A stretch of DNA of 64,000 nt from NCBI GenBank assembly GCA_965220965.1, contig OZ244852.1, positions 480,001 through 544,000 of the forward strand, in the 5' to 3' direction. Source of the stretch: Candidatus Marinacidobacterium sp. Lineage in GTDB: Bacteria; Acidobacteriota; Vicinamibacteria; Marinacidobacterales; Marinacidobacteraceae. This document shows, in pieces, positions 11,143 through 27,181 of the stretch; positions within the stretch are counted from its first letter, which is position 1, and every line of letters begins with the position of its first letter. The notes under the pieces are model-generated. The model searched no databases, was not told where the DNA came from, and saw nothing but the letters and a program-made list of their open reading frames with translations. A program made the position numbers and the translations under genes.

Positions 11143-12504
11143 TCAGGCTGCTGAGGCGTCCGAGGCGCGGTAGACGGCAAGCGACCGGACGGAGTCCGGG
11201 TCGGGGGATTCGTCGGGGTCGCCGACGTCTGCGGCGAGTTGTCGAACCGCCGTCGGTACGGGCTCCAGTTGGGGAAGATCCGACCCGGCCTTCTGCATTT
11301 CCTCGAGCCGGCGAGCGGTTGGGAGAAGGCGATGCTCGAACGACCCCACGCTGGCGTTGTACCGCTTCACCGCAGTGTGGAGCGATGAACCCAGGTCGCG
11401 GAGATGTCCGGTGAACTTCCGGACGCGCTCCACGAGCTCGCGGCCGAGGGTGGCGAGCTCCTTCATGTCGTCCGCGAGGCTTTGCTGTCGCCATCCCCAC
11501 GCCACCGCCTTCGCCAGCGCGATGAACGTCATGGGCGTCGCGATCAGGACCTGACGCTCGGCGGCGTACTCGAAGAGTTCCGCGTCGACCTCCAGCGCCC
11601 CGGCGAAGAGTGCTTCGCCTGGCAGGAACATGACGACGAAGTCGGGCGAGGTGCTGAGCGCGTTCCAGTACTCCTTCGAGGACAGCGCCTCCACATGGGT
11701 GCGGAGCTGGCGGGCGTGCCGGGTCAGCGCGGCCCGCCGCGCCGCCTCGCTCTCGGCCTCCGCGCCCGCGAGATAGGCCTCGAGGGGCGTCTTCGCGTCC
11801 ACCACCACGGACCGCTCGCCCGGCAGCCGCACGACGGCGTCCGGCCGCAGCGCCCCGTCCGGGTTGCGGAGCCCGGGCTGCTCCTCGAAGTCCACGTTCT
11901 CGAGCATCCCGGCCATTTCCAGCACCCGGCGCAACTGGACCTCGCCCCATCGCCCCCGGGTCTGCGGCCGGCGAAGCGCCTTGACCAGGCGTCCGGTCTC
12001 GTTCTCGAGTCTCCTCTGGCTCGCCGCCAGGTTCTTCACCTGCTCGCTGACCGTTCCGTAGGCCCCCTCGCGCTTCGACTCCAGCTCCTGAACGCTCTTC
12101 TCGAACTTGCCCAGGGCTTTCCCCAGTGGGTCCACGACGGCCTCGAGCTTCCTGTGGCGCGCCTTCATCTCCTCGCTGGCGGCGGTCTGGTGTCTCTGGA
12201 AGCGCTCGCTCACCAGCTTCAGGAAGTCCTCCCCGCTCTGCCGGAGCGCCTCGCTCGAGAGCGCGGCGAACTTCGTCTCGACCTCTTCGCCGAGCGCCCG
12301 CAGACCAGCGACCTCGGAGCTGTGGAGCCGTCGCTCGGATTCGAGCGAGGCCTTCGCGGCGGCGGCCTCCTCCCGGGCGGTTTCGAGGCGCTCCCTGAGT
12401 GGCGTCAGGCGCCGGTTCGATGCGATTGCGGCGAGGAGGGCGCCGGCGGCGAGCCCCAGCAGCAGCGCTCCCGCGATCAGGCTGATTGACATCGTCGTAT
12501 CCAT
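11143..12504 (-). CDS. rmuC: DNA recombination protein RmuC
   Basis: N-terminal TM plus coiled coil, RGRWGEVQL, RPDAVVRLPG..VVDAKTPL, PDFVVMFLPGE. Confidence 0.93.
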   Translation of the reverse strand: MDTTMSISLIAGALLLGLAAGALLAAIASNRRLTPLRERLETAREEAAAAKASLESERRLHSSEVAGLRALGEEVETKFAALSSEALRQSGEDFLKLVSERFQRHQTAASEEMKARHRKLEAVVDPLGKALGKFEKSVQELESKREGAYGTVSEQVKNLAASQRRLENETGRLVKALRRPQTRGRWGEVQLRRVLEMAGMLENVDFEEQPGLRNPDGALRPDAVVRLPGERSVVVDAKTPLEAYLAGAEAESEAARRAALTRHARQLRTHVEALSSKEYWNALSTSPDFVVMFLPGEALFAGALEVDAELFEYAAERQVLIATPMTFIALAKAVAWGWRQQSLADDMKELATLGRELVERVRKFTGHLRDLGSSLHTAVKRYNASVGSFEHRLLPTARRLEEMQKAGSDLPQLEPVPTAVRQLAADVGDPDESPDPDSVRSLAVYRASDASAA

Positions 12505-12726
12505 GCCCGAGAGGTTAGGGGGTGGCCGGGTCAGAACATGTCACCCCCGCGAGCGACTCTCCCGCGGACCTCCCGGCCGGGGTCCGCTCCCGCCGTTACA
12601 CTTCGCCGCGTTCGTCCCGCCGGCGCCGGGGGGCGAGCTCCCGACCGTGCGTTCACCGGCGCCCGGGTCTTCGTTCCCGACCAGCGCCGGAGACCGCCGC
12701 ATCTTGTTGCGTAAGGAGAGCCCGGA

Positions 12727-15003
12727 TTGATCCGCAAACAGGACGCCCTCGAGTACCACCGGAAAGGCCGCCCGGGCAAGATCGAGGTCCACCCCTCGAA
12801 GCCCACCCGGACCCAGCGCGACCTCTCGCTCGCCTACAGCCCGGGAGTCGCCGAGCCGTGCCGGGACATCCACGAGCGCCCGGAAGACGTCTTCGAGTAC
12901 ACCGCCAAGGGGAACCTGGTCGCCGTGGTCTCGAACGGGACGGCGGTCCTCGGGCTCGGGAACATCGGACCGCTGGCGGCCAAGCCGGTCATGGAAGGGA
13001 AGGGGGTGCTGTTCAAGCGCTTCGCCGACATCGATGTGTTCGACATCGAGCTGAACGTCACCGAGCCCGACGAGGTCGTGCGGGTCGTGAAGGCGCTCGA
13101 GCCCACCTTCGGGGGCATCAACCTCGAGGACATCAAGGCGCCCGACTGCTTCCACATCGAGAGCCGTCTGCGCGAGGAGATGGAGATCCCCGTCTTTCAC
13201 GATGACCAGCACGGCACCGCGATCATCTCGGGAGCGGCGTTCCTGAGCTGGCTCGAGCTCACCGGGAAGGACCCGGCGGAGGTCGTCATCGTCATCAACG
13301 GGGCCGGCGCCGCCGGGATCGCCTGCGCCGAGCTGGCGGAGAGCCTGGGAGTCCGGCACGAGCACATCGTGATGTGCGACTCGCGGGGCGTGATCCACCA
13401 GGGCCGCTCCTCGGGCATGAACGAGTTCAAGGAGCGCTACGCGCTCGACACCTCGGCGCGCACCCTCGAGGACGCCATGCGGGGCGCGGATGTCTTCATG
13501 GGCCTTTCGGTCGCCGGCGCGGTGTCGAAGGAGATGGTCGTCTCGATGCGCGAGCAGCCGCTCGTGATGGCGATGGCCAACCCCGATCCCGAGATCACCT
13601 GGGAGGACGCCAACGAGGCCCGTTCCGATGTCTTCATGGCGACCGGACGATCCGACTACCCGAACCAGGTGAACAACGTCCTCGGTTTCCCCTTCATCTT
13701 CCGCGGCGCGCTCGATGTGCGGGCGCGCTCGATCAACATGGAGATGAAGCTGGCCGCGGCCCGGGCGCTGGCGGCGCTGACCCGGGAGGACGTCCCGGAC
13801 TCGGTCATGCAGGCCCACGGCAAGGAACGCATGCAGTTCGGCCCGGAGTACCTCATCCCGTCCCCGTTCGACACCCGGGTTCTGCTCTGGGAGGCGCCCG
13901 CCGTCGCCCGCGCCGCGGTGGACAGCGGCGTGGCGCGCATCGGGCTGGACGAAGAGGAGTACGTGGCCCGCCTCGAGGCCCGCCTCGGACTCGAGCGCGA
14001 GGTCATGCGCAAGATGGTCAGCCGCGCCCGCAAGGTGAAGCGCTCGGTCGTCTTTCCCGAGGGGGAGGAGCCGAAGATCCTGCGCGCCGCCCAGCGCCTG
14101 ATCGACGAGAACATCGCCCGTCCCATCCTGATCGGCGATCCGGAGGCCATCCGCGAGCGCTGCGAGGCCCTCGACGTGGACATCGGCGACACCGCGATCG
14201 TCGCCGCCGGCGACAGCGCCCCCCGCGCCGATGTCTACGCGAAGGAACTGGCGGCGCTGCGGCAGCGGCGGGGCGTGGGCGTCCAGAAGGCCCGGGAGCT
14301 CCTGCGCAATCCGAGCTACTTCGGCGCGATGATGGTCCACCTCGGCGACGCCGACGCGATGGTGGCGGGGATCACCCAGAACTACCCGGAGACGATCCGT
14401 CCCGCGCTCCAGATCGTTCGCACCCGACCCGATGTGCGCCGGGTGGCGGGCGTCTACCTGATGGTGCTTCCGAACGAGCTCAAGTTCTTCGCCGACGCCA
14501 CGGTGAACATCGATCCGGACGCCGACACCCTCGCCGAAATCGCGATCCAGGCCGCCGAAGTGGCGCGCCGGTTCGACGTCGAGCCCCGGGTCGCGATGCT
14601 CTCCTTCTCGAACTTCGGCAGCGCTCCCCACCCCCGCTCGAACAAGGTGCGGGCCGCCGTCGAGATCCTCCGGGAGCGTGCGCCGGACCTCGTCGTCGAC
14701 GGCGAAATGCAGGCCGACACCGCCGTCGTCGAGGACATCCTGAACAAGACCTACCCGTTCTCGCGGCTCGACCGCGCGGCGAACGTGCTCGTCTTCCCCA
14801 GCCTCGAGGCCGGCAACGTGGCCTACAAGCTCATGCAGCGGCTCGGGGGCGCGGAGGCCATCGGACCGCTCGTCACCGGCCTGCGCCGGCCGGTCCATGT
14901 GCTCCAGCGGAACGCCGGCGTCGAGGAGATCGTGAACGTGGTCGCGATCGCCGCCGTCGAGGCGCAGCACAACCCCGGGGCCAAGCCGCTGTTCCCCGCC
15001 TGA
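12727..15003 (+). CDS. maeB: NADP-dependent malic enzyme with phosphotransacetylase-like domain
   Basis: [48 protein letters not shown], then VFPEGEE and DGEMQAD. Confidence 0.96.
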
Positions 15004-15031: not shown

Positions 15032-16441
15032 TCAGTCCTCCGGATTGCGCGCGGGTTTCGCGCTCTCGTTCGGCCCTGGACGGATGCTGCCGAGAGTGAA
15101 CATCCCGACGGGACCCTCGACCAGCGGATCGAGTCCCGTCGCCTTCGCGAAGACTCTCGGGTCGCTCGTCCCGACCGCGCACGGGGCGAGGCCGAGGGCG
15201 GTCGCGGCCAGATAGAGCGTCTGGTAGAGGACGCCGGCGTCCCGCAGGATCAGCCCGTAGCCGATCGAGTGGTACCGGCGCATCATCCGGGCGAAGCGGG
15301 CCGCCACCACCAGCACGACCTGGGGGGGCGCCCGGACCCCGAGCGAGGCGCTGGCCAGCTCGATGAGCTGTCGTGATTCCGGGGTGGGTCCGGCGATCCG
15401 GCCCAGCTCGTGCCGCGTCGCATCGTAGTGATAGAGGCCGGCGTCGAGGCCCCGGCAGGTGCGGATGACCGGATAGATCTCGAGCTCGTAGCGGGCGCCC
15501 GCGCCCGGATACGGTGGCCCCTCGGTCGGTCCGGTTCGGGGCGCCCGAGCCCGGTCACCGCCCGCCGGGAAGGAGCGGGGCCGCACCCTCGCCGCCAGAT
15601 CGAGCAGCCGACCCAGGTCTTCCGCGGTCATCGGTCGCTCATCCGCCCACTCGCGGAGCGAGCGGCGGCGCGCCATCAGCGCGCCGAGCGCGTCCGGACC
15701 GGAAGCCCCCCCTCCGGTGGCGAGCGGGATCCCCGGGCCCGTCCCGGGCCCCCGGGGCGTCGAGGCCGGCGACGGGGCATCGAGGTTCGGCGGTTTCTTG
15801 CCGACGGGATCGTGGGTCCAGCCGATGCTCTGATGGAAGTGGAAGTGGAGGTCGTGGAAGTCCCAGTCGGCGAGCGCTTCCGCCGGATGCGTTCCGGGCG
15901 CCGCCTCCAGGAAACCCGCCGCGTCGAGGGCCCTTCGCACGACCGGCGATTCCAGCGCCCGAAGGTCGGGGAGCGCGAATCGCGCGCCGACCAGCGGTGA
16001 TTCGAGGAGCCAGCCTCCTTCGCCTCGCGGCCGCAGGCAGGCCATCCGGTGCAGGCCCCGCTCCGGATCCGGTTCGCGGGCCGCCAGCGCCGGAACGAAC
16101 TCCCTCCACTGCGGCGACACGACAGCGCGTTCGGCGTCCCCGTCCATGAGCGGGAACTCGATGGCGCCGAGCCGCGTCAGCCGCTGCAGCGTGAGCAGGA
16201 CTTCCACGGCGCGCTCGACGCCGCCCGCGCCGATGGCGTGATCCCTGAGTTCCGCCAGCGAGGCGCCCGCGCTCAACCGGGCGGCCACCAGCCGGAACGC
16301 GTCCGGCGTCTTCAGGCGGCCGACGGTCCGTCCCTTCGGCCGCAGTTCGACGGCGTCCCGGTCTCCGGTTTCGCCGAGGTCGACCTCCCGCGAAAGCCGA
16401 AGATGGATCGCCGGCTCGTTCGTCAGATCAGGGAACGACAT
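15032..16441 (-). CDS. SagB/ThcOx-family FMN-dependent azoline dehydrogenase with N-terminal extension
   Basis: RRRSLR, YPGAGARYELEIYP, GLYHYD, DAGVLYQTLYLAATALGLAPCAVG; AAGGAG RBS before ATG 16441. Confidence 0.9.
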   Translation of the reverse strand: MSFPDLTNEPAIHLRLSREVDLGETGDRDAVELRPKGRTVGRLKTPDAFRLVAARLSAGASLAELRDHAIGAGGVERAVEVLLTLQRLTRLGAIEFPLMDGDAERAVVSPQWREFVPALAAREPDPERGLHRMACLRPRGEGGWLLESPLVGARFALPDLRALESPVVRRALDAAGFLEAAPGTHPAEALADWDFHDLHFHFHQSIGWTHDPVGKKPPNLDAPSPASTPRGPGTGPGIPLATGGGASGPDALGALMARRRSLREWADERPMTAEDLGRLLDLAARVRPRSFPAGGDRARAPRTGPTEGPPYPGAGARYELEIYPVIRTCRGLDAGLYHYDATRHELGRIAGPTPESRQLIELASASLGVRAPPQVVLVVAARFARMMRRYHSIGYGLILRDAGVLYQTLYLAATALGLAPCAVGTSDPRVFAKATGLDPLVEGPVGMFTLGSIRPGPNESAKPARNPED

Positions 16442-16497
16442 GGCTGAGGCGCTCCTTTGAGGAGCGCCGGAAAGAGGCGAGACCGCCACCGCGCGAA

Positions 16498-16506
16498 TGG
16501 TACGAT
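16498..16506 (+). promoter_or_regulatory. Putative extended -10 element for the leader-only gene and ycaO
   Basis: TGGTACGAT (TGn-TAnnnT) about 24 nt before GTG 16530, in the divergent intergenic gap. Confidence 0.45.
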
Positions 16507-16529
16507 CGGCGTCGCCTGCGGAGGGCGGA

Positions 16530-16754
16530 GTGAACCAGAAGGAAGGCGGCCCGGATGACGGCCGGTATGTGGATCTGGTCGCCCGCTACTACGGCGATCC
16601 GGAGTTCCGCGCCCGGATGGACCGGGACCCGGCGGCCGTGATGAAGGCCGAGGGATTCGATGTCCCGGAGGACGCCACGATCCGGCTGCTGTTCGATCGG
16701 GCGGATCTCATGAACATCGTGCTGCCCGCCCCCGGTCCGGATCCTCCGAAGTGA
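16530..16754 (+). CDS. Stand-alone NHLP leader-like peptide with no GG site and no core
   Basis: LVARYYGDPEFRARMDRDPAAVMKAEGFDVPEDATIRLL..NIVLP matches the nitrile-hydratase-like leader pattern; stop overlaps the ycaO start (GTGA). Alternative start ATG 16497. Confidence 0.8.
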   Translation: MNQKEGGPDDGRYVDLVARYYGDPEFRARMDRDPAAVMKAEGFDVPEDATIRLLFDRADLMNIVLPAPGPDPPK

Positions 16755-19081
16755 ACGCGGCTCCGGGCTTCCCGGAGGCGCCGGCCGCGGACATCGCGCC
16801 CGAGGTTGATCCGGCCCTCGGCGTCCGGCGCTTCGCTCCCGAGGACCGGGGCCTCGTCGAACGGCCGGTGCTGGCGCCCCATCTGCGTTACCGCGTCGTC
16901 GCCGACGGGAAGATCGTCATCGCCTCGGACCGGACCGGCGCTGTGCTCGAGGGGCGCTGTCTTCCCGACCTGATGCCGCTGCTCGACGGCGAGCGGACGC
17001 GACACGCGATCCTGGCGGAGCTCGCCGGGCGCCACGAGGCGCTGGAGGTGCAGACCGCGCTGGTCCGGCTGGCCGCCGACGGCTACGTCGTCTCGGCGGA
17101 ATTCGGGCTGGACCGTCCGCTCGCCGCCTTCTGGAGCGGCCTGGGCGCCTCGCCCCGGTTCGCCGAAGCGCGTCTCGCCGCGACCCCGGTCCGGGTGAGG
17201 GGTGATGACGGGCGCCTTCGGGCCCGGCTCCGCGACTTCGGCGTCCAGTCCGGGGCCGGACCCGGGAGTCTCGAGGTCGCGCTCACCGCCGGCTACGCCC
17301 GGGGTGGAGGCGACGCCTCAGCCCGGTCGGTTCGCGGCGCCGGCGCCTGGACGCTGGTTCAGACTTCCGGTTCGGCCCCGGTCTTCGGGCCGGTCTTCGG
17401 ACCGGAGGGCGGCGGCGCGTGCTGGACCTGCATCGCCCGGCGCATGGAGGGCGCCCGAGGGTTCGAGTCCTTCCTGCGACGCACCCGGAACGGGGACCCG
17501 GGCGTTCGGGAAGGGCGTCCGGGACCGGCGGTCGTCCACGGCATGGCCGCCCTCGAGATCGCCCGCTGGATCGTTCTCCGAAAAGGGGCGCCGCTTCACG
17601 ACCACCTCTTTTCCTTCGACGTCGCCACATCCGGCCTGCGCACGCACGGCGCGCCCCGGCGCCCCCAGTGCGCCGAGTGCGGCCCGGCCGACGCCGCCGA
17701 CGCGTTCCGGGCCGATCGCCCGCCCGAGCCCCTCCGCCTCGAGTCGAGTCCCAAGGCGCTGACCAACAGCGGTGGGACGCGCACCGCGGCGCCGGAAGAC
17801 ACGGTGCGGCGATATCGGCATCTGGTCGATCCGGTCGTCGGCGTGGTGAAGGAGCTCTCGAGGGTCAGCGCCTCCGGCGATTCGTGGCGCCACGTGTACC
17901 TCGCGAGCCAGGCGGCCGTCGAAGGGCCATCCGACCTCCGGGGGCTCCGCACCGCGCGGCGGGGCCGCAGCTCGGGCAAGGGCGGCGCCCCGGAGCAGGC
18001 GGAGGCCAGCGCGCTCTGCGAGGCGCTCGAGCGCTACTCGGGGACGCTCCAGGGGGGCGAGATCCGCCAGCGGCGCCGCTTCACCGACTTCCAGGCCGGC
18101 GAAGCCATCGCGCCCAACGACGTGCAGCTCTTCAGCCAGGCCCAGCTCGAAGCGGCGCCCGGCGACTATCCGGTCCCCACCGTCATCCCGCCCGCGCCGT
18201 TCGAGCCGGACGCGGCCATCGACTGGACTCCGGTCTGGTCCCTGACCGCGCGCCGGCATCGTTATCTGCCAACCGCTCTCCTCTACTTCATGCCCGTCGT
18301 TCCGGGAGCGCCCAACCAGTTCGTCGCCGACTCGAACGGGTGCGCGGCCGGCAACACGCGGGAGGAGGCGATTCTCCAGGGCTTCTTCGAGCTGGTCGAG
18401 CGCGACGCCTTCGCCTGCTGGTGGTACAATCGGATCCCGATGCCGGCCGTGGACCTGGCCAGCTTCGGGCGGGACTACCTGGCGCGGGCGCCCGCCGAGT
18501 ACGCGAAGGACGGCCGCGAGATGTGGCTGCTCGACATCACCCACGACTTCGGGATCCCCGTCTTTGTCGCGGTCTCGCGCCGCGCCTCCGGGCCTGCGGA
18601 ACAGATCCTCTTCGGGGCGGGCGCCCACCTCGATCCGGTCGTGGCGGCGATGCGCGCCGTGTGCGAAATGAACCAGATGCTCGTCCGGCTGGGACCGGAC
18701 CTTCCGGTGTCGGGGCATGACCACGATGGGCCCCGGCTGGAGTGGCTGCGCACCGCGACCACCGCCGCGCACCCCTACGTGGCGCCGGCCCCGGACGAGC
18801 CGGCGCGGTCAGCGGGTGGCGAGGCGCCGCGGACCAGCGATCACCGCGAGGACATCCGGTCGTGCCGCCGGATCGTCGAGGAGCGCGGGATGGAACTGCT
18901 CGTCCTCGACCAGACCCGGCCCGATGTCGGGCTGCCGGTGGTCCGGGTCATCGTCCCCGGGATGCGCCCCTGGTGGGCGCGGTTCGCGCCCGGCCGCCTC
19001 TACGACACGCCGGTGAGCCTGGGATGGCGCGTTCGCGCCGCCTCCGAGGCCGAACTCAACCCGCTGGAACCGATGTTCTGA
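16751..19081 (+). CDS. Fused RRE / E1-like / YcaO cyclodehydratase (TOMM C-D fusion)
   Basis: N-terminal RRE-like region, CWTC and CAEC, SSGKG, ALCEALERYS, SNGCAAGNTREEAILQGFFELVERDA, Pro-rich C-terminus NPLEPMF. Confidence 0.95.
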   Translation: MNAAPGFPEAPAADIAPEVDPALGVRRFAPEDRGLVERPVLAPHLRYRVVADGKIVIASDRTGAVLEGRCLPDLMPLLDGERTRHAILAELAGRHEALEVQTALVRLAADGYVVSAEFGLDRPLAAFWSGLGASPRFAEARLAATPVRVRGDDGRLRARLRDFGVQSGAGPGSLEVALTAGYARGGGDASARSVRGAGAWTLVQTSGSAPVFGPVFGPEGGGACWTCIARRMEGARGFESFLRRTRNGDPGVREGRPGPAVVHGMAALEIARWIVLRKGAPLHDHLFSFDVATSGLRTHGAPRRPQCAECGPADAADAFRADRPPEPLRLESSPKALTNSGGTRTAAPEDTVRRYRHLVDPVVGVVKELSRVSASGDSWRHVYLASQAAVEGPSDLRGLRTARRGRSSGKGGAPEQAEASALCEALERYSGTLQGGEIRQRRRFTDFQAGEAIAPNDVQLFSQAQLEAAPGDYPVPTVIPPAPFEPDAAIDWTPVWSLTARRHRYLPTALLYFMPVVPGAPNQFVADSNGCAAGNTREEAILQGFFELVERDAFACWWYNRIPMPAVDLASFGRDYLARAPAEYAKDGREMWLLDITHDFGIPVFVAVSRRASGPAEQILFGAGAHLDPVVAAMRAVCEMNQMLVRLGPDLPVSGHDHDGPRLEWLRTATTAAHPYVAPAPDEPARSAGGEAPRTSDHREDIRSCRRIVEERGMELLVLDQTRPDVGLPVVRVIVPGMRPWWARFAPGRLYDTPVSLGWRVRAASEAELNPLEPMF

Positions 19082-19129
19082 TCGCGACCGGTCGGATGCC
19101 CGGGCCGGTCGGAAGCCCTGGCGAGCGGA

Positions 19130-19399
19130 TCAGTAGACGCAGTTGCAACCGCAGTAGTTGCAGTTGCCCCCGGAGACCGAATCGAGTTGCTCCCCGGTCA
19201 ACCGGGGGGAGGGCGGCAGGATCAGGTGCCCCTGACTCGCCGTGTCCTCGTGCACCCGGATCTCGAATCCGTCGGGGATCGTGATCTCGAACTCCTCTTC
19301 GATCACGCTCTTCGGATCCTGAGTCAGGCGGGCGCGGAAGCCGGCGTCGGCTTCCGCCCTGGCGATCAGGTGGGCGCGCATCTCGTTCGCGGATTTCAT
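19130..19399 (-). CDS. NHLP-family RiPP precursor 1; core NCNYCGCNCVY
   Basis: 78-aa NHLP leader ending LDSVSGG, 11-aa core; GGAGGA RBS. Confidence 0.93.
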   Translation of the reverse strand: MKSANEMRAHLIARAEADAGFRARLTQDPKSVIEEEFEITIPDGFEIRVHEDTASQGHLILPPSPRLTGEQLDSVSGGNCNYCGCNCVY

Positions 19400-19468
19400 G
19401 GGGCGCAGTCCTCCGGTAGCGGAAACCTAACAGAACGCGAAGGCTCCAGGCGCGGTCCGGCGCCGGCC

Positions 19469-20347
19469 TCAGGCGCCCTGGAAGTCGGCGCGGGCATACG
19501 CCTTGGCCGCCACCCCTCCGCGCGGGTCGATGTTCGTCTTGAAGTGATGCAGGATGACGCGGAGGACTCGCATGCCCGCGCCGGTCAGCGTGAGTTGCGG
19601 GAGCAGCGGAGCTTTCAGTCTGCGCGCCTTGCCGGGGAGACACCAACCCTCGGCGACGAAGAAGTCGACGAGTCCGACCCAGGCGGCTGACGACTCGTCC
19701 GTCAGCGCGCGATGGGCGAAGAGTTCGATCCCCAGGCCGGGTGAGATCCGCCCATCCGTGACATCCACCATCAGGTTGCACTCCGGACTCAGCTCGCCGG
19801 TCAGGGCGGGGGGCGCCTGACGGGCGTCCAGCCGCGGCGGCAGCGCCCCGCTCCAGCCGATGCGCTCCAGGAACGCGGGGGCGTCGGCCCAGGGAACGCG
19901 CGCCGCCACCCGCATCGCGCGGGGCCGGCGCCCCGGCATGGCGCCGAGATGCGCAAGCAGCCCGGCGGGGGGCAGCGCCGCGACGATCCGGCTGACCAGC
20001 GCGCTCTCCCGTTCTTCCGGCGGCCAGCCGGCGGCGCGCGCGAGTTCGGGGACAAGGACGTCCACCCCGGCCCGGTCCGGCGGAAGGTGCAGGTTGGCGA
20101 GGAAGATGCCGGGCGCCCGCTCGGGCGCGGCGATGAGGTCGTACTCGAGGATGATCTCGGGCGCGAGCTGGCCGAGCGCGGATCCCGTCCGCTCCATTTC
20201 ACCCAGGAGTCCGGCGACGCCCGGCCAGCCGCTGTCCCGGGTGACCCACCCGGCGAAGGCGCTTCCGGGACGGACCCGCACAAACAGGTCCGCCGCCGGC
20301 GCCGGATCGGCGAGGCGGAACTCGAAGCCGAACGGATCCTCGGCCAC
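19469..20347 (-). CDS. Uncharacterised RiPP-associated enzyme, possibly ABBA-fold prenyltransferase-like (true start probably further upstream)
   Basis: FGFEFRL..D, ILEYD, LMVDV, GIELF, HHFK..AKAY. Lies between two precursors; the frame stays open to about 20480. Confidence 0.6.
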   Translation of the reverse strand: MAEDPFGFEFRLADPAPAADLFVRVRPGSAFAGWVTRDSGWPGVAGLLGEMERTGSALGQLAPEIILEYDLIAAPERAPGIFLANLHLPPDRAGVDVLVPELARAAGWPPEERESALVSRIVAALPPAGLLAHLGAMPGRRPRAMRVAARVPWADAPAFLERIGWSGALPPRLDARQAPPALTGELSPECNLMVDVTDGRISPGLGIELFAHRALTDESSAAWVGLVDFFVAEGWCLPGKARRLKAPLLPQLTLTGAGMRVLRVILHHFKTNIDPRGGVAAKAYARADFQGA

Positions 20348-20480
20348 GCAGGCGGGGAGCGCCGCCGCGGTCCGCAGCAGGACATCCCACGCCGCTGCGC
20401 CGATGAGTTCCGCGGGAATGACCGTTCGCGCGGTGGCCAGCGCCGGGGCGAAGCCCGCCGTTGGCCGGTCGGTTACCGCA

Positions 20481-20741
20481 TCAGTAATGGCAACTGCAGA
20501 CGTTCGTGCCTCCCGCCACCGAGTCGAGCTGATCCGAGCTCAGCCGGGGCGAGGGGGGCAGGACGAGGTGCCCCTCGGTCGCGGTGTCCTGGTGGACCCG
20601 GACCTCGAATCCGTCCGGGATCGTGATTTCGAACTCCTCTTCGATCACGGACTTCGGATCCTGCGCCAGGCGGGCGCGGAAGCCGGAGTCGGCCTGGGCC
20701 TTCGCGATCAGGTGGGCGCGCATCTCGTGAGCGGACTTCAT
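20481..20741 (-). CDS. NHLP-family RiPP precursor 2; core TNVCSCHY
   Basis: Last 86 aa of the spurious 1033-aa ORF: MKSAHEMRAHLIAKA..LDSVAGG-TNVCSCHY; GGAGGA RBS before ATG 20741. Confidence 0.93.
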   Translation of the reverse strand: MKSAHEMRAHLIAKAQADSGFRARLAQDPKSVIEEEFEITIPDGFEVRVHQDTATEGHLVLPPSPRLSSDQLDSVAGGTNVCSCHY

Positions 20742-20770
20742 GTGGCGGAATCCTCCCGAATCGGAAACTA

Positions 20771-23686
20771 TCAGAGCTTCGGGTCCGGGGAAAACGCCAT
20801 CTGGCGGGTGGCCATCCGTCGGAAAGGGCCGTCCTCGGCCATCAGCGCCTGATAGTTCCCGGACTGGACGACGCGCCCTGACTCGAGCACATGAATGCGG
20901 TCCGCCCGGCGGATGGTGGAGAGACGGTGCGCGATGACGATCCGGGTCGCAGCCGATGACTCGATGCCCGCCATCGCCTGGGCCTGGCTCTTGCGGTCCA
21001 GCCAGCTCGTGGCTTCGTCGAGAAACAGGATGCGCGGCTTGCGCACGAGCGCGGCGGCGAGCGAGATGCCCTGGGTCTGCCCCCCGGACAGCACGGCCGC
21101 GTCGCCCACGCTGGTGTGCATCCCCATCGGCATGGCCGCGATGTCCCGCGCCACGCCCGCCAGCTTCGCCGCCCCCCAGGCGTCGGTGAGGTCCAGGTCC
21201 TCCGTCCCGACGATGTTCTCCAGAATGCTGCCCGGCATCAGGCCCTGCTCCTGCATCACGACCCCCACGTGACGCCGCACCGCGCGCCGATCGATGTGCG
21301 CGAGGTTCCGGCCGTCGTAGTAGATGGCGCCGGCTGACGGCTCGTCGAGGCCGAGCGCCAGCCGGATGAGCGTGCTCTTGCCGGCGCCGGACTCCCCGAC
21401 GATCGCGACGAACTCCCCCGGCCGGACGTGGATCGAGACGCCCTGGAGGATCTCGCGCGCCCCCGGCGCATACTTGAACCGCACGTTGTCGAACCGGATC
21501 TCGCCGCTCAGCTCGACGGGAGGGGCGTTCGCCGTCGGAGTCGATTCCGGAACGCGGGCCAGCACCGGCCCCACCTGCTCGCACGAGGGCCCGATCTCGG
21601 CGATCGTGTCGAACACCTGCCCCAGCGCGATGACCGAGCCGAACAGGACCATGGCGGCCAGGTAGGCGACGAGGAAGTCCCCGGTCGCCTCCGCTCCGCG
21701 CTCCTGCCGGCTCGCCAGCAGGAAGATGGCGGCGCCGGCCAGCGCCGGGAGGGCGGCGAAGAGCGCCTGGAGGTGTTCCTGGAGCGAGGAAACCCGGACT
21801 TCGGCCTCCTTCTGTTCCCGGTAACGCCGCGCCCAGGCGGCGTAGGCGAACCCTTCCGCGCCGCTCTGCCGCAGCCGGACGATTCCGGCCACGAACTGCA
21901 GCAGGTCCCGCGTCTGTCGACGGGCGGCCTCGAGTCGCCGGCGCTGCGCGCGGGTCTGGACCGCGCCGAGTCCGCCAGCGAGCAGGAGCGGGGCGAGACC
22001 GAAACCGAGGACGAGCAGGCCGAACCAGACGTCGAACAGGAAGAGCAGACAGACCGCCGGCAGAAGCTGAAACGGCGCGAGCAGGGTCGCCGCCACCGAG
22101 CCGCCGACCTGGTCGCGGAGCCGCTGGAAGACGGTGGCGCGAACCGCCGAGTCGCCGGCTGTCGTATGCGGATCCACCCGGCTCCGGACCAGGCGATCCC
22201 ACAGCGCCGCCGTGAGCCGGCTGGAAACCCGCGCCTCGAGGCGCATCGCGGCCGCCCCACGGAGGACGCCGGCGGCGCCGGCGACCAGGGCCAGAGGGAG
22301 CAGGCCGGCGGTGAAGGCGATCAGGATGCCGGGCTGGCCGGTGGGGATCACCCGCTCGATCAGCGCGCCGAGCGTGACCGGCGGCGCCATCGCCAGAAGG
22401 CCGGCGACCACCCCCGCCAGCGCAAGGGCGAGCGCGTCCCCCAGCAGGTTGTGTTTCGCCAGCCCCCCGAGGTCGCGCCATCCGGCCGGACGGCGAGACG
22501 GCAATCCGGGGTAGGGGAGCCAGGCCATCTCCTCCAGGCCTGCGGCCACGCCGGCATTCACCGTTACGGAACTCCCTGAGGCCGGATCCACCGCCCGGTA
22601 GCCACCCGTGCGGGGAATCAGCGCGATCGGGCGCCCGTCCTCTCGACCGCGGCCCAGCATGGCTCCGCTGTCGCTTCGCCACCAGGCGTCGTCCCTCCGC
22701 AGCCGCACCCGGCGGGCCTGAACGCCGGTCGCCCGGAAGACCTGCTCGGCGCCGGGTTCCTCCCCGCCCTTCAGCGGGGGAGCGCGGAACTCCATGCCGC
22801 TGTGGCGACCCACGGCTTCGAGGGCCGCCATCAGCGGACGCCGCTCGCGCGCCGCGGCGGGGCCGTGGAACAGGGCGGCGAGATGCGCCTTCCCCTCGGC
22901 CTCGGCCTCCCGGCCGCGATGGGACGCCTCGACCTGCAGGTTGGCGAAGTCCACCGCCCGGAGCCGCCGGGTGAGGCCCTCGGCGCCCAGGATGAGCTCG
23001 TGGAAGCGCGCCAGCGCCGACCCCAGCAGCAGTTCCGGGGCGAGTTCCCGGGAGGCGATGGCATGGGTCTCCACGCCGGCCGCAAGCGTTACCCAGGCGT
23101 CCCTGGTGATGGCCGTCGGGGCGCCGTCCGGCACCGGCTCGAGGTCGAGGAACAGGGATCCGGGTATGGCGTCCGGCCCGATCCAGACGACGCCGCGGGC
23201 TGCGGCGATCCGGCCTTCCTCCACCGCTCCCTCGGACCCCGGCGTGAGCCGCGCCCCGATCCGGGGCATGGGCCGGATGGCGCTCGCCACCCCGGCGGCG
23301 AACGGACGGATCCAGGCGTCGACCTGGGCGGCCAGCGCCTCGCCTCCGTCGCGCCTTCGGGCCTCGGCGAGGAGGCGATCCACCGCGATCCGGCGGACCG
23401 TGGTCCCGGCGATCCCCTTGGCGTGGAGGCCGAGCGAGGCGCCCTTGCCGCCCTCCGGGACGGCCCCGAAGGCCAGCCGACCGGGGAGGACGCGGAGCGC
23501 ATGCCGGAACCCGGATCGGGCGCCATCGGTCGCCAGGTCGACGACGAAGACGTCCAGCCCGCCCGATTCGACGAGCCAGCAATACCGCGGATCGTCGAGG
23601 TCGAGCGGTCGATTCGAGGCCGCTGTCCGCGGCGCCGAGCTCGAAGCCGCCAGCTCGGTGAGCCAGGCCGGCGCCGTATCAGTCAT
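20771..23686 (-). CDS. NHLP bacteriocin export ABC transporter, permease/ATPase subunit
   Basis: N-terminal CWLVESGGLDVF domain, WWRSDSGAMLG, TM domain, GESGAGKST, LSGGQ, LDEAT, IAHRL. Confidence 0.92.
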   Translation of the reverse strand: MTDTAPAWLTELAASSSAPRTAASNRPLDLDDPRYCWLVESGGLDVFVVDLATDGARSGFRHALRVLPGRLAFGAVPEGGKGASLGLHAKGIAGTTVRRIAVDRLLAEARRRDGGEALAAQVDAWIRPFAAGVASAIRPMPRIGARLTPGSEGAVEEGRIAAARGVVWIGPDAIPGSLFLDLEPVPDGAPTAITRDAWVTLAAGVETHAIASRELAPELLLGSALARFHELILGAEGLTRRLRAVDFANLQVEASHRGREAEAEGKAHLAALFHGPAAARERRPLMAALEAVGRHSGMEFRAPPLKGGEEPGAEQVFRATGVQARRVRLRRDDAWWRSDSGAMLGRGREDGRPIALIPRTGGYRAVDPASGSSVTVNAGVAAGLEEMAWLPYPGLPSRRPAGWRDLGGLAKHNLLGDALALALAGVVAGLLAMAPPVTLGALIERVIPTGQPGILIAFTAGLLPLALVAGAAGVLRGAAAMRLEARVSSRLTAALWDRLVRSRVDPHTTAGDSAVRATVFQRLRDQVGGSVAATLLAPFQLLPAVCLLFLFDVWFGLLVLGFGLAPLLLAGGLGAVQTRAQRRRLEAARRQTRDLLQFVAGIVRLRQSGAEGFAYAAWARRYREQKEAEVRVSSLQEHLQALFAALPALAGAAIFLLASRQERGAEATGDFLVAYLAAMVLFGSVIALGQVFDTIAEIGPSCEQVGPVLARVPESTPTANAPPVELSGEIRFDNVRFKYAPGAREILQGVSIHVRPGEFVAIVGESGAGKSTLIRLALGLDEPSAGAIYYDGRNLAHIDRRAVRRHVGVVMQEQGLMPGSILENIVGTEDLDLTDAWGAAKLAGVARDIAAMPMGMHTSVGDAAVLSGGQTQGISLAAALVRKPRILFLDEATSWLDRKSQAQAMAGIESSAATRIVIAHRLSTIRRADRIHVLESGRVVQSGNYQALMAEDGPFRRMATRQMAFSPDPKL

Positions 23687-25886
23687 CGCCCACCAGGTCG
23701 CGGTATAGGCCCTCGACCGCGATCAGCTCGTCGTGCGAGCCGGTCTGGACCGGCCGGCCCGAGTCGAGGACCACGATCAGGTCGCTGTCGCGAATCGTCG
23801 AGAGCCGGTGAGCGATGATGAGGCAGGAACACCCCCGGCGGCGGAGCGCGTCGTCGATCTCCTGTTCGGTGAGCACATCGAGCCCGCTGGTCGCCTCGTC
23901 CAGAACCAGAACCGAGGGCTCGTTGACCAGCGCGCGGGCGATCTCGAGCCGCAGCCGCTCCCCGCCGCTGAAGTTGCGCCCCGCCTCCTCCACCGGCGTC
24001 TCGTAGCCGAGCGGCCGGCGCAGAATCTCCTCGTGGATCCGGGCGTCGCGCGCCGCCGCCACCACCAGTTCGTCCGGCGCGGCGCTGTTCCACAGCGTGA
24101 GGTTCTCCCGGACGGTCGCCGCGAACAGGAACGGGCTCTGGTCCACCATCGAGACCGAGTTCTGGAGCACCGCCGACGGAATCCGGCGACGGGGAACGCC
24201 GTCGAAACAGACCTCTCCCGACCAGGGCTCGTGAACGCCGGCCACCAGCGAGGCGAGAGTCGATTTGCCCGACCCGATGGATCCCACGATCGCCACCCGC
24301 TGCCCGGGTTCGATCGTCAGCGAGAAGTTCTCGATCAGCGGCGGGCGGTTTCGCTGGAAGCCGAAGGTGACATCGCGCAGCTCGATCCTTCCGGCGAGCC
24401 GGACTCGTCCGGCGAGGGTGGCGACCCCCGGACCCTCACTCTCGGCAGCCGCCGGGTTCTCCTCGTCGCCCGAGACCACCAGGACGTCGTTCAGGCGCTG
24501 GAGCTGTCCCTCGAGCGACTGGATCGTGTCCGAGAACTGCGTCAACTGACATACCGGGCGGAGGAAGTTGCCGGCCACGACGTAGAAACCAACCAGCGTT
24601 CCGATGGTCATGTCGCCGTTCATGGCGCGCCAGCCGCCGAAACCGAAGACCGCCGCGGCGCCCAGGATCAGGACGAAATCCGGCAGCGCCGTGGTGACGT
24701 GCCCGAGCTCGGCGAACTCCTGGCGCGCCTTCAGTTCCCGCGCCTGGTGGCCGGCTGCGCGCGAAAAGAAGCGGTTCTCCGAAGCGGTGGCCTGGAGCTG
24801 GGTCAGGCGGCGCAGTCCGGACGTGACGTATCCCGCCAGCTCTCCCTGGGCGCGCGCGAATCCCGGGCTGAGTTCCGCCCGCCGATTGCGCACCAGCCGC
24901 GCGAGCGCCAGCGCCAGGATGGCGAGCGCGGCCACCGCCACCGCCGACGGGACGTCGAAGACGAACATAAGCGCGAGGAACGAGAGCCCGAGCGCCACAT
25001 CGGCGAAGAGCGACACGAGCTGGGTCGCGCTGACGGTGGCCACGCCGTCCACCAGCCGCATGCGATCCACCAGGTCGCCGGCCAGCCGGCGGCTGAAGAA
25101 GGACATCGGACGCCGGAGCAGTCGCGTGAAATAGCGGTCGGCGTACTCGACCGACATCCGCACTCCCATCCGCCGCAGCGTTCGCATCTGGAGCCAGGTG
25201 AGCAGGTAGACCAGCGCGGCGACGCCTCCGGCCGCCGCGATCAGCGCCCCGGACCGCGCGGCCTGGCCGCCGATCAGCACCTGATCCACGAAGAGGGCGA
25301 GGAGCAGCGGCAGGGCGAGGCCGGAGGCCGCGAGGAACAGCGAATAGAGCGCCGCGAGTCCGAGCGAGGGTCGATGCCCGGAGAACCAGGGCCAGAGCTG
25401 CCGCAGCACGCCCGACGACTGGCCGCCCTGACGAAACTCCGGCGTCGCCTCCGGGATCAGGAGCACCCCGGTGAACGCCGTGTCGAAGTCCTTCGCCCCG
25501 ATGGTCCGGTGTCCGCTCGCCGGGTCGTTGATGTGGAAGCCGTCGCGGTCAGCGCCCTCGAGAACGACGAAGTGGTTGAACTCCCAGAAGAGGATCGACG
25601 GAACCGGCGAGGCGTCCAGTTGGGAAGGTTCCCGGCGCCATCCGGTGGTCTTCAGCCCGTAGGTCGAGGCGGCGCGGACGATGTCCCCGGCGGTGCAGCC
25701 GTCGCGTCCGGTCCCGCACGCCTCCCGCATCTCCTCGAGGGTGGCCCGGTAGCCGAAGTGGGCCAGCACGATGCCGAGACAGGCGGCGCCGCAGTCGGAG
25801 GCCTCCTGCTGAAGGAAGACCGGTGTGCGGACCCGCCTTCGCCGGCGAAACGGCGACAGCCGCCTCACCGCGTCGCTCAGCTTCAC
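23679..25886 (-). CDS. NHLP bacteriocin export ABC transporter with C39 peptidase
   Basis: GTG 25886; QQEASDCGAACL, WEFNHFVVLEG, INDPASG (C39 Cys/His/Asp); GSIGSGKST, FSGGE, LDEAT. Confidence 0.94.
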   Translation of the reverse strand: MKLSDAVRRLSPFRRRRRVRTPVFLQQEASDCGAACLGIVLAHFGYRATLEEMREACGTGRDGCTAGDIVRAASTYGLKTTGWRREPSQLDASPVPSILFWEFNHFVVLEGADRDGFHINDPASGHRTIGAKDFDTAFTGVLLIPEATPEFRQGGQSSGVLRQLWPWFSGHRPSLGLAALYSLFLAASGLALPLLLALFVDQVLIGGQAARSGALIAAAGGVAALVYLLTWLQMRTLRRMGVRMSVEYADRYFTRLLRRPMSFFSRRLAGDLVDRMRLVDGVATVSATQLVSLFADVALGLSFLALMFVFDVPSAVAVAALAILALALARLVRNRRAELSPGFARAQGELAGYVTSGLRRLTQLQATASENRFFSRAAGHQARELKARQEFAELGHVTTALPDFVLILGAAAVFGFGGWRAMNGDMTIGTLVGFYVVAGNFLRPVCQLTQFSDTIQSLEGQLQRLNDVLVVSGDEENPAAAESEGPGVATLAGRVRLAGRIELRDVTFGFQRNRPPLIENFSLTIEPGQRVAIVGSIGSGKSTLASLVAGVHEPWSGEVCFDGVPRRRIPSAVLQNSVSMVDQSPFLFAATVRENLTLWNSAAPDELVVAAARDARIHEEILRRPLGYETPVEEAGRNFSGGERLRLEIARALVNEPSVLVLDEATSGLDVLTEQEIDDALRRRGCSCLIIAHRLSTIRDSDLIVVLDSGRPVQTGSHDELIAVEGLYRDLVGDD

Positions 25887-26740
25887 GGATCGGGCAGCAG
25901 AAGCGCGAGCGGCGAGGTCCGCCCCGTCGGGATGGCCACCCGCGCGGCCGCCCCCTCCCGGACTCCCGGGGTCCCCGGCGGGAGCGCCAGTCGAACGAGC
26001 CGCGCGCTCTCCGATGCGAAGGAAGCCCGGGCGGCCAGGCTGGACGCGGAAGGGTCGAGGACCTCTTCCAAGACCGAGGACGCCGGCTCCTCGCTCGCCC
26101 CGAGCCGCACCGCAACGGCAGCCCCCCGGGAGATCCTCGCCGCGAGTCCGTCCTCGACGGCGACCAGAACCTCGGGCAAGCCGCCGTCCGCGCGGACTTC
26201 GGCCACCGGCTGACCCTCGGACACCGGAACTCCGACCGCCAGATCGTTCAGGACGAGGATCCCGGCGACCGGGCTGATGACCTCGGCGGCGGCCTCGGCG
26301 GCCTCCAGGTCGGCGCGCGCGACCTCGAGCGCCGGTGGTTCCGAATCGGCGTCCGACGCCAGGCTCCGGGCCTCGACGACCGCGAGCCGGGCCTCGGCGA
26401 GCGCGATCCGCAGCGCGGTCTCCGGCCCTTCGATGCGCGCCACGACCTGACCGGGCCGGACCGGGTCGCCGTCCCCGGCGAGCAGTTCGACGACGGTCCC
26501 GCCGGCGCCGGCGGCGAGCGCGGTCCGCTCTCCGCCGAAGACGACGAGGCCCTCCCGGATCTCGATCCGATCCACCCGCACCAGGGCGCCCCACGCGACG
26601 GCGGCGATCACCCCCGCCGCCAGCGCCACGCGCAGTTGCCGCTCGTGCGGCGCGCTCACGCAGAGGGGGTCGTCAAGGGGGTCCGGCCGCGCGCTCTCGA
26701 GCAGCGCGGACTCCCGAAACGGCGAGGAGCCAGTCCACAT
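25883..26740 (-). CDS. NHLP-system secretion adaptor (HlyD-like), short form
   Basis: PFRESAL..PDPLDDPL, TM helix, split lipoyl-like halves, C-terminal SPLALLLP; overlaps the transporter start. Confidence 0.8.
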   Translation of the reverse strand: MWTGSSPFRESALLESARPDPLDDPLCVSAPHERQLRVALAAGVIAAVAWGALVRVDRIEIREGLVVFGGERTALAAGAGGTVVELLAGDGDPVRPGQVVARIEGPETALRIALAEARLAVVEARSLASDADSEPPALEVARADLEAAEAAAEVISPVAGILVLNDLAVGVPVSEGQPVAEVRADGGLPEVLVAVEDGLAARISRGAAVAVRLGASEEPASSVLEEVLDPSASSLAARASFASESARLVRLALPPGTPGVREGAAARVAIPTGRTSPLALLLPDP

Positions 26741-26917
26741 GCACTGCTGATCCTCGCATGATCCGCCCCCTCAGCGGAGGAACGCCACGCCGCGCGGCGG
26801 GATGTCCCGGCTCGGGGAGCGGCCGGCGCGGCGTCCGCTCCCCCGGGTCGGTCAGTCAGGCGCTGTCACCGCCGGAGCGCGCGCCGGGGATGCGCATGCC
26901 GCCGGCGACGGCGTCTG

Positions 26918-27181
26918 CTACATCGTGACGGCGCACATGCAGGAGATGCCGCCCGAGACGCCGTCGAGCTGCTCCTCGCTCAGTTGGGGCGAGGGCGGGA
27001 GGACCAGGCGCCCCTCGGTGGAGCTGTCCTCGTGCTCCGGCGCCTCGAACCCGTCGGGGAGGGTGATGTCGAACTCCTCCTCGATCGCGGCCTTCGGATC
27101 CTGGGTCCGACGAGCGCGAAAGACGGGATCCTCTCCCGCCTTGGCGATGAGGCGGGCGCGCATCTCGGTCACGGACTTCAT
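26918..27181 (-). CDS. NHLP-family RiPP precursor 3; core ISCMCAVTM
   Basis: MKSVTEMRARLIAKA..LDGVSGG-ISCMCAVTM; GGGAGGA RBS before ATG 27181. Confidence 0.9.
   Translation of the reverse strand: MKSVTEMRARLIAKAGEDPVFRARRTQDPKAAIEEEFDITLPDGFEAPEHEDSSTEGRLVLPPSPQLSEEQLDGVSGGISCMCAVTM

Follow-up and report, generated by a model that had tools for sequence, protein, structure and literature searches.

A predicted ABBA-fold peptide prenyltransferase of a family without curated models in an NHLP-leader thiazole peptide cluster of Candidatus Marinacidobacterium

Peptide prenylation is a sought-after lipidation chemistry, and the enzyme families described for it are few, namely the cyanobactin F-type, the ComQ/PalQ-type and the recent additions MppC and NctPC (PMC13290415 and PMC12715784). 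Here, we analyse a 64,000-nucleotide stretch of DNA from Candidatus Marinacidobacterium sp. (the window) and in particular the gene listed at 19469..20347 on its minus strand. This gene belongs to a cluster for peptides that are made by ribosomes and modified after translation (RiPPs) with nitrile hydratase-like leader peptides (NHLP), and we propose that its product is probably a peptide prenyltransferase. Prenyltransferases with an ABBA fold are already known for RiPPs, i.e. the cyanobactin F-family, MppC and NctPC. Within the first of these, PagF O-prenylates Tyr. It is a cyanobactin prenyltransferase (PMC12715784), and in PMC12715784 and PMC13290415 the cyanobactin enzymes are described as leader-independent catalysts from cyanobacteria that act on excised, mostly macrocyclic cores. 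The F-family (PagF, PatF and DciF; also LimF and TruF) resembles the window protein in its ABBA fold and in its setting of ribosomal peptides with YcaO-made azol(in)es. In contrast to the cyanobactin systems, the cluster in the window has NHLP leaders, linear C-terminal cores and C39 export.

MppC, a cyanobacterial ABBA prenyltransferase, depends on a long and structured leader of the Nif11 type and attaches a geranyl group to C5 of Trp, a single residue in the short core of a lanthionine-cyclised peptide (PMC12715784). Compared by description only, this leader dependence is the likely working mode of the window enzyme with its NHLP leader. NctPC combines an ABBA prenyltransferase of low similarity to the cyanobactin enzymes with an MstE-like cyclase in one protein; geranylgeranyl is attached to Trp, and cyclisation follows (PMC13290415). 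The same two-domain architecture, likened here by description, is found in fused relatives of the window protein, whereas the window protein itself stands alone and its cores carry Tyr instead of Trp. The abstract of the NctPC paper (Hubrich et al. 2024, Chem) reportedly predicts maturases of this kind for proteusins, Nif11 peptides and lasso peptides. PalQ prenylates the C-terminal Trp of an NHLP-type precursor with an activity that is enhanced by the leader, and it came to light through mining of the isoprene synthase domain superfamily (IPR008949; PMC10853753); it is grouped with trans-isoprenyl-diphosphate-synthase-like prenyltransferases (PMC13290415). The fold of these PalQ/ComQ-type enzymes differs from the ABBA barrel predicted for the window protein. 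A literature search, with supplements outside its reach, found no paper that pairs an ABBA prenyltransferase family with NHLP/YcaO azole clusters.

On the predicted structure, the window protein almost certainly has the ABBA (PT-barrel) fold. The AlphaFold2 model was calculated for a 329-residue form (19469-20458, minus strand) with an alignment of 60 sequences and consists of five alpha-alpha-beta-beta repeats forming a ten-strand barrel, with a predicted local distance difference test (pLDDT) score of 92.1 and a predicted template modelling (pTM) score of 0.91. Among the matches listed by Foldseek against the PDB (ranks 1-50), all are ABBA aromatic prenyltransferases, the best with E 8.3e-7. 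VIA-align gave 133 chains at Z >= 8, with Z 16.6 for MpnD (root-mean-square deviation (rmsd) 4.1 Å, 289 residues aligned), 16.4 for CymD, 16.1 for FunA and about 13 for NphB. A scan of 48,161 PDB representative chains that did not depend on Foldseek returned 19 chains at Z >= 8 (Z 16.4-10.5), every one an ABBA prenyltransferase: 12 of DMATS type, EpzP, AmbP1, NphB, CloQ and the cyanobactin proteins PatF (12.1), PagF (11.2) and DciF (10.5). The next chain was a designed barrel with Z 6.4. An ABBA barrel had been suggested by eye in the preliminary description, which named a predicted fold of another kind as the outcome that would speak against it. AlphaFold2 and Foldseek return an ABBA fold, and the confident model, the Foldseek matches and all 19 top chains bear the suggestion out on the level of predicted structure.

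The best structural matches are the bacterial DMATS-type enzymes MpnD, CymD, IptA, PriB and TleC (PDB entries 4yl7, 6os5, 7w8u, 5inj and 4yzl). They comprise about 340-375 residues, share the same ten-strand barrel and superimpose with Z 14.3-16.6 and rmsd values of 4.0-4.4 Å over 266-294 of the 329 residues, but the identity is only 9-14% and the window protein has no match to Trp_DMAT (PF11991). According to the titles of their PDB entries they act on free tryptophan and small indoles, and they are not encoded beside RiPP precursors. The match to the cyanobactin F-family is weaker, as seen from the Z values above, and has no counterpart in NCBIfam or Pfam.

The listed ORF (open reading frame) is a real gene with a clear coding signature (GC3 0.87), its GC content by codon position (0.778/0.546/0.874) resembling that of the adjacent genes. 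Two overlapping frames were dismissed on the same measure, a plus-strand ORF of 330 aa at 19860..20852 (shadow-like values of 0.656/0.695/0.813) and a frame of 194 aa at 19801-20385. The gene lies on the same strand as precursors 1 and 2, with a gap of 69 nt on one side and an overlap on the other; this agrees with its earlier description as co-oriented and placed between precursors 2 and 1, whose cores end in CHY and CVY. Precursor 3 (core ISCMCAVTM) had been noted as lying elsewhere and lacking an aromatic residue, and it is indeed 6.6 kb away. The four motifs quoted at that time (FGFEFRL..D, LEYD, GIE and HHFK..KAY) are all found in the translation, which contains FGFEFRLADPAPAAD, ILEYDL, GLGIELF and HHFKTNIDPRGGVAAKAY.

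A tie to isoprenoids is also seen in gene fusions. In 21 database relatives of 673-786 aa and in lasso loci, the family domain has a C-terminal fusion partner, a domain scoring above the Pfam cut-off for SQHop_cyclase_C, and some sources label the fused relatives 'terpene cyclase/mutase family'. The best match to the model of this C-terminal domain (pLDDT 94.7) is MstE, a class II terpene cyclase of one domain, with a TM score of 0.89, 33% identity and E 8e-22; squalene-hopene cyclases are the next matches. Since MstE and squalene-hopene cyclases match best, a LanC-like or protein-prenyltransferase-beta reading of the alpha/alpha domain was rejected. The domain carries an invariant D-A-D-S-T motif, which we take to be the class II acid motif, and the conserved residues of the family are kept in the N-terminal prenyltransferase domain of the fused proteins. 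The predicted fold and the cyclase fusion partners tie the family to prenyl chemistry, the fusions being independent support. The window protein is a stand-alone member, ending 2 residues past the family profile without a C-terminal cyclase domain.

Among 83 diverse representatives, E46, K307 and Y321 (numbering of the 329-residue form) are invariant, and conservation reaches at least 90% for D57, E105, D107, R177, R183, E245, K277, H305 and K319. In the model, E46, D57, E105, R183, E245, H305, K307, K319 and Y321 lie within barrel strands, D107 one residue beyond a strand end, R177 in a turn between two strands and K277 in a helix. All family-invariant residues are intact in the window protein. 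In our view, a barrel that binds a diphosphate and generates a cation would need such a cluster of basic residues and Tyr together with acidic ones. We propose that R177, R183, K277, H305, K307, K319 and Y321 would bind an isoprenyl diphosphate inside the barrel, where E105/D107/D57 may hold Mg2+, and that the prenyl cation would then pass to a nucleophilic group within the short core at the C-terminus of the NHLP precursors. The enzyme would bind the structured NHLP leader, as MppC does the Nif11 leader, and would probably act with the leader still attached, either before or after YcaO and SagB convert Cys to thiazoles. Cleavage at GG and export of the peptide would follow, both carried out by the C39 ABC transporter.

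We consider a soluble ABBA-fold peptide prenyltransferase of a large family without Pfam or NCBIfam model to be, probably, the best explanation overall, and it is likely that the window protein is a prenyltransferase acting on the NHLP precursors of its cluster. Several observations weigh against this assignment. For the window protein, Pfam and NCBIfam gave no family at E <= 1; none of 60 relatives matches an ABBA or prenyltransferase family in Pfam, Trp_DMAT (PF11991) included; and a profile search of PDB sequences gave nothing meaningful. The cluster holds no prenyl-donor gene, and the two polyprenyl synthases of the genome are encoded elsewhere, the nearer about 108 kb away, so the donor must come from general metabolism. 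PatF, moreover, is an ABBA-fold protein of a RiPP cluster that is inactive.

The curated models Trp_DMAT, PTase_Orf2 (PF11468) and cyanobactin prenyltransferase likewise gave no match above cut-off for the window protein. Genome scans with PF11468 and PF11991 found no match in any genome nor in the controls and are hence uninformative. The word 'new' in the preliminary description is therefore justified at the sequence level, as the Pfam, NCBIfam and PDB sequence searches all remained without match.

The inactivity of PatF, which has the same fold (Z 12.1), would be consistent with a catalytically inert accessory protein, i.e. a scaffold or a leader- or core-binding partner for the YcaO machinery. 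Such a role would suit the eight LCCC-type loci (see below) in which the family gene directly follows a fused YcaO gene, and it would suit the missing sequence similarity to active prenyltransferases. We regard it as improbable, since the (near-)invariant charged and Tyr residues, mostly on predicted strands, form the pattern of an active site. Furthermore, the fusion proteins retain these residues, and the MstE-like terpene cyclase that they contain requires a substrate that is prenylated; many members occur without YcaO, beside CoA-transferase, FAD (flavin adenine dinucleotide)-oxidase, P450 or lasso genes.

A word-indexed search found 81 relatives of 327-498 aa without Pfam domains, named 'hypothetical protein' at most, and an exhaustive search found 408 representative clusters (50% identity) at E <= 1e-3. 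Members are present in 7 of the 401 genomes sampled from the phylum, in 49 of 401 from the class, 13 of the 16 genomes of a sister genus in the same taxonomic family among them, and in at least one genome of another lineage. No relative turned up when metagenomes were scanned with P0084, the closest homologue. Of 41 loci, a set that includes the locus of the window and four weak partial matches, 23 have an NHLP precursor within 1.5 kb, and 18 of 23 larger loci with flanks to about 10 kb have one in reach. Downstream of the GG or AG site the cores are very short: WC[STC]P[VI] (n = 9), LCCC[W/G/L/GI] (n = 10), GGYY, IDWGEVGWR and AAPWWW. The clades of the enzyme tree follow the core motifs WC[STC]P[VI], LCCC[W/G/L/GI] and AAPWWW. 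Both trees were quick ones with SH-aLRT (Shimodaira-Hasegawa-like approximate likelihood ratio test) support only, and the second comprised 21 of 37 locus rows and 8 representatives, near-duplicates and a far lasso group having been dropped.

This association bears on the idea of a small-molecule aromatic prenyltransferase for free Trp, free Tyr or a metabolite that just happens to be located in a RiPP cluster. The nearest structural neighbours, which use free tryptophan and indole compounds, would be in line with it. It is nevertheless very improbable, because the gene is wedged between two same-strand precursor genes, NHLP precursors adjoin the family in more than half of the loci and the clades follow the core motif.

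Partner genes vary with the core. A similar YcaO (E <= 1e-212) is adjacent in 9 loci, and in the LCCC clade a fused YcaO gene is found directly upstream of the family gene in all 8 loci fetched. CoA-transferase III accompanies WCSPV cores and P450 accompanies GGYY; the partner gene of the AAPWWW core encodes an FAD oxidase with a cytokinin-dehydrogenase-like domain, and lasso-peptide genes lie beside family members in two genomes. In the WC[STC]P[VI] loci L001, L008, L024-L028 and L030 (and in L014, L015 and L062), a single or doubled CoA-transferase family III gene directly follows the enzyme gene, and YcaO is missing. At L063 (10420-11888, minus strand, and 11734-13323, plus strand), the GGYY precursor lies directly upstream of a family member with an adjoining cytochrome P450 gene, and a second family copy is found 6 kb off beside a gene for a pyridoxal phosphate-dependent enzyme. 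In L009:415-2373 (-), which is the same as L022:8565-10523 (-), a radical SAM/SPASM domain is joined to a weak family match (two stretches, E 1e-14). Further genes of LCCC-type clusters encode a member of the Trp-halogenase family, a fatty-acid-desaturase/GlnE-like fusion and a class I methyltransferase (coordinates of extra genes in the table). Around the YcaO-adjacent members in L052-L059 and L064, the roughly 13-20 kb retrieved contained no homologue of the SagB from the window at E <= 1e-10; LCCC clusters, without SagB nearby, may stop at thiazolines.

Evidence on the acceptor comes from these cores and from an orthologous cluster. Once its long branch was broken by close representatives, the window protein fell into a clade (aLRT 99) that includes P0086, identical (100%) to the protein of locus L064 from an unrelated metagenome-assembled genome labelled Rhodobacterales (G763). 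The gene set of G763 comprises the enzyme, a YcaO (E 3e-215 to that of the window), a SagB homologue (8e-97) just outside L064, a C39 ABC transporter, HlyD and a leader-only NHLP-like ORF. A genome-wide search located its NHLP precursor with the core VDSGDCYCYG in the same cluster, 12 kb from the prenyltransferase gene. A YhgA-like transposase gene (L074:2694-3932, plus strand) is inserted between this precursor and the SagB gene. The sister clade holds the GGYY precursor. Because the cores in this branch are rich in Cys and Tyr near the C-terminus, we tentatively favour Tyr as acceptor from the comparative context, here the C-terminal Tyr of precursors 1 and 2.

Of the 25 precursor cores beside relatives, a tally that does not extend to the AAPWWW core (L016), 21 have Trp or Tyr, Cys likewise occurs in 21, and none lacks both. 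An aromatic acceptor is not general in the family, since the remaining four cores (LCCCG twice, LCCCL and LCCCGI) have neither Trp nor Tyr, and the sister relation of the window protein to the GGYY clade reaches an aLRT of only 80-87; both points tell against Tyr. An active ABBA peptide prenyltransferase could instead modify another nucleophile, namely the thiol of Cys, the His in CHY, the C-terminal carboxylate or an azol(in)e intermediate. The abundance of Cys in the cores and the four cores devoid of aromatic residues would be explained in this way, and the free carboxylate is the only feature common to all cores, which are all very short C-terminal tails. The nine WC[STC]P[VI] precursors, moreover, have Cys at position -4 in a CaaX-like layout. 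Cys is not a general acceptor either, because four cores (GGYY, IDWGEVGWR, one ending in ...TWKGR and one with RDAWVLHAG) lack it, as does AAPWWW. In addition, Cys residues are the expected YcaO substrates here, the literature examined showed no ABBA enzyme that S-prenylates a RiPP Cys, and in both genomes examined from the window clade Cys and Tyr occur together near the C-terminus (CVY, CHY and CYCY). An acceptor other than Tyr seems to us a minor but real possibility.

Judged from the reading frame, the listed ORF covers only part of the true coding region. Upstream, the frame remains open to 20539; it comprises 356 codons, and its coding signature stays normal as far as the stop of the precursor. 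The residues directly upstream of the GTG read FAPALATARTVIPAELIGAAAWDVLLRTAAALPAC, and those encoded by 20351-20455 match positions 8-42 of a hidden Markov model of the family, built without the window protein, with 21.0 bits, whereas the best of 200 shuffles and the other frames reached 4.3 bits. About 45 extra N-terminal residues are present in all 24 aligned homologues (consensus SFGxxLxxLRxLFPxALxxGxGWERLLxxAxRLP), and the upstream-encoded helices 3-12, 21-31 and 36-40 have pLDDT values of 90-95 in the AlphaFold2 model. The size of 300-330 aa given at the outset suits this extended protein better than the listed 292 aa do, because the coding region continues upstream of the GTG. The 292-aa database protein lacks the first helices of the fold, and cloning as annotated would probably yield a misfolded enzyme.

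Candidate starts of translation (table 11) are ATC 20533, ATT 20488 (20488-20486) and CTG 20440. All three precursor genes (starts 19399, 20741 and 27181) have a perfect GGAGG 9-10 nt upstream. The YcaO gene (16751) and the first ABC gene (23686) have no Shine-Dalgarno (SD) motif, and their starts overlap the stop of the preceding gene. ATT 20488 overlaps the end of precursor 2 (CAT-TAC-TGA, last codons and stop). Since the other genes of the cluster without SD motif start over an upstream stop, ATT 20488 is our preferred, albeit provisional, choice; it would give 339 aa, with translation coupled to the termination of precursor 2. The GGAGG motifs of the precursors compared with the overlapping SD-less starts of YcaO and the first ABC gene suggest high precursor and coupled, lower enzyme translation.

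The start also raises doubts about the integrity of the gene. Neither ATG nor GTG nor TTG occurs in the segment that encodes the conserved N-terminal helices (upstream to 20455), an SD motif is absent before every candidate start and before the listed GTG, and a family member was found in neither of the two other genomes of the genus that were searched. Since a canonical start and an SD motif are both missing, the product might be truncated and unstable, contrary to our proposal. The gene would then be a decaying or N-terminally truncated copy that yields the 292-aa GTG product or nothing, and the cluster would make unprenylated thiazole peptides; the long branch of the window protein fits this as well. 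Such decay is nonetheless unlikely in view of the open frame with its normal coding signature, the 21-bit score that the 35 upstream residues still reach against the family profile, the intact family-invariant residues and the stop-overlapping starts of two other SD-less genes of the cluster. Contigs from two public runs (two studies), one of them possibly the source of the genome itself, span 19000-21000 with 0 differences, so an assembly slip is unlikely, and this identity also argues against decay.

The whole cluster spans 15032 to 27181 and is flanked by a malic enzyme gene and nuoA. Its precursors with GG, YcaO with leader-binding domain, SagB and C39 ABC exporter are the components of an NHLP-leader cluster for thiazole/oxazole-modified peptides (TOMMs), and wherever a curated cut-off is available they exceed it. 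The stop of the leader-only ORF overlaps the YcaO start. Counterparts of it are seen at L069:2281-2775 (-) and in frames upstream of YcaO in L052, L053, L054 and L057. In the orthologous cluster of G763, a similar ORF (VAKYYGDPEYRRSLERDPAG...NIVLPRP) lies near the precursor; NHLP-like matches also precede YcaO in several LCCC loci. This ORF may represent a conserved decoy or a chaperone-like leader domain.

Table. Features of the cluster in the window (positions 15032 to 27181) and extra genes of related LCCC-type clusters (positions within the locus named).
Feature	Position	Strand	Evidence
SagB-type azoline dehydrogenase	15032..16489	-	TIGR03605 139.9 bits (cut-off 78.4); Nitroreductase, ThcOx
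85-aa NHLP-like leader-only ORF, no GG-core	16497..16754	+	NHLP/NHase_alpha matches weak, below cut-off
Fused leader-binding (E1-like/wHTH) domain and YcaO cyclodehydratase	16751..19081	+	YcaO 4.2e-95; TIGR03604 253.6 bits (cut-off 219.25); TIGR03882 117.6
NHLP-leader precursor 1, 89 aa, core NCNYCGCNCVY after GG	19130..19399	-	TIGR03793 68.1 bits (cut-off 50.9); GGAGG 10 nt upstream
Listed ORF (GTG start, 292 aa); covers the predicted ABBA prenyltransferase barrel from repeat 1 (strands) to repeat 5	19469..20347	-	coding signature, fold
In-frame upstream extension; first two or three helices conserved in the family	20348..20488	-	profile match, model
NHLP-leader precursor 2, 86 aa, core TNVCSCHY after GG	20481..20741	-	TIGR03793 66.9 bits
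ABC transporter, long N-terminal region, no peptidase domain	20771..23686	-	
C39-peptidase ABC transporter (GG-leader cleavage, export), start approximate	23679..25934	-	Peptidase_C39 4.8e-32
HlyD-family membrane fusion protein	25883..26740	-	
NHLP-leader precursor 3, 87 aa, core ISCMCAVTM without aromatic residue	26918..27181	-	TIGR03793 53.6 bits
Extra gene of an LCCC-type cluster	L052:11322-12617	+	
Extra gene of an LCCC-type cluster	L055:13830-16322	-	
Extra gene of an LCCC-type cluster	L057:4703-7099	+	
Extra gene of an LCCC-type cluster	L055:12880-13758	-	

Taken together, the case is strong for the fold and the genomic context; the chemistry, i.e. activity, prenyl donor and acceptor, we infer. 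What is new, as far as sequence comparison goes, is a large family without a curated model, the occurrence of its stand-alone members in NHLP/YcaO thiazole clusters outside cyanobacteria and the cores that accompany them. The cluster in the window probably makes lipid-tagged, thiazole-containing peptides. As a more far-reaching and still speculative proposal, the stand-alone members may constitute a widespread class of leader-dependent peptide prenyltransferases outside cyanobacteria that serves several RiPP classes, namely NHLP azol(in)e, CaaX-like WC[STC]P[VI], Trp-rich and lasso peptides. The product in the window would then be an exported poly-thiazole peptide of 8-11 residues, with the prenyl group attached to the C-terminal Tyr (alternatively to Cys or the carboxylate) by an enzyme that is translated from an ATT start coupled to the termination of its substrate gene. 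Provided that the family is active, the RiPP repertoire would gain prenylated linear azole peptides from non-cyanobacteria, and the family members would provide new leader-guided lipidation catalysts as well as a new marker for genome-mining tools.

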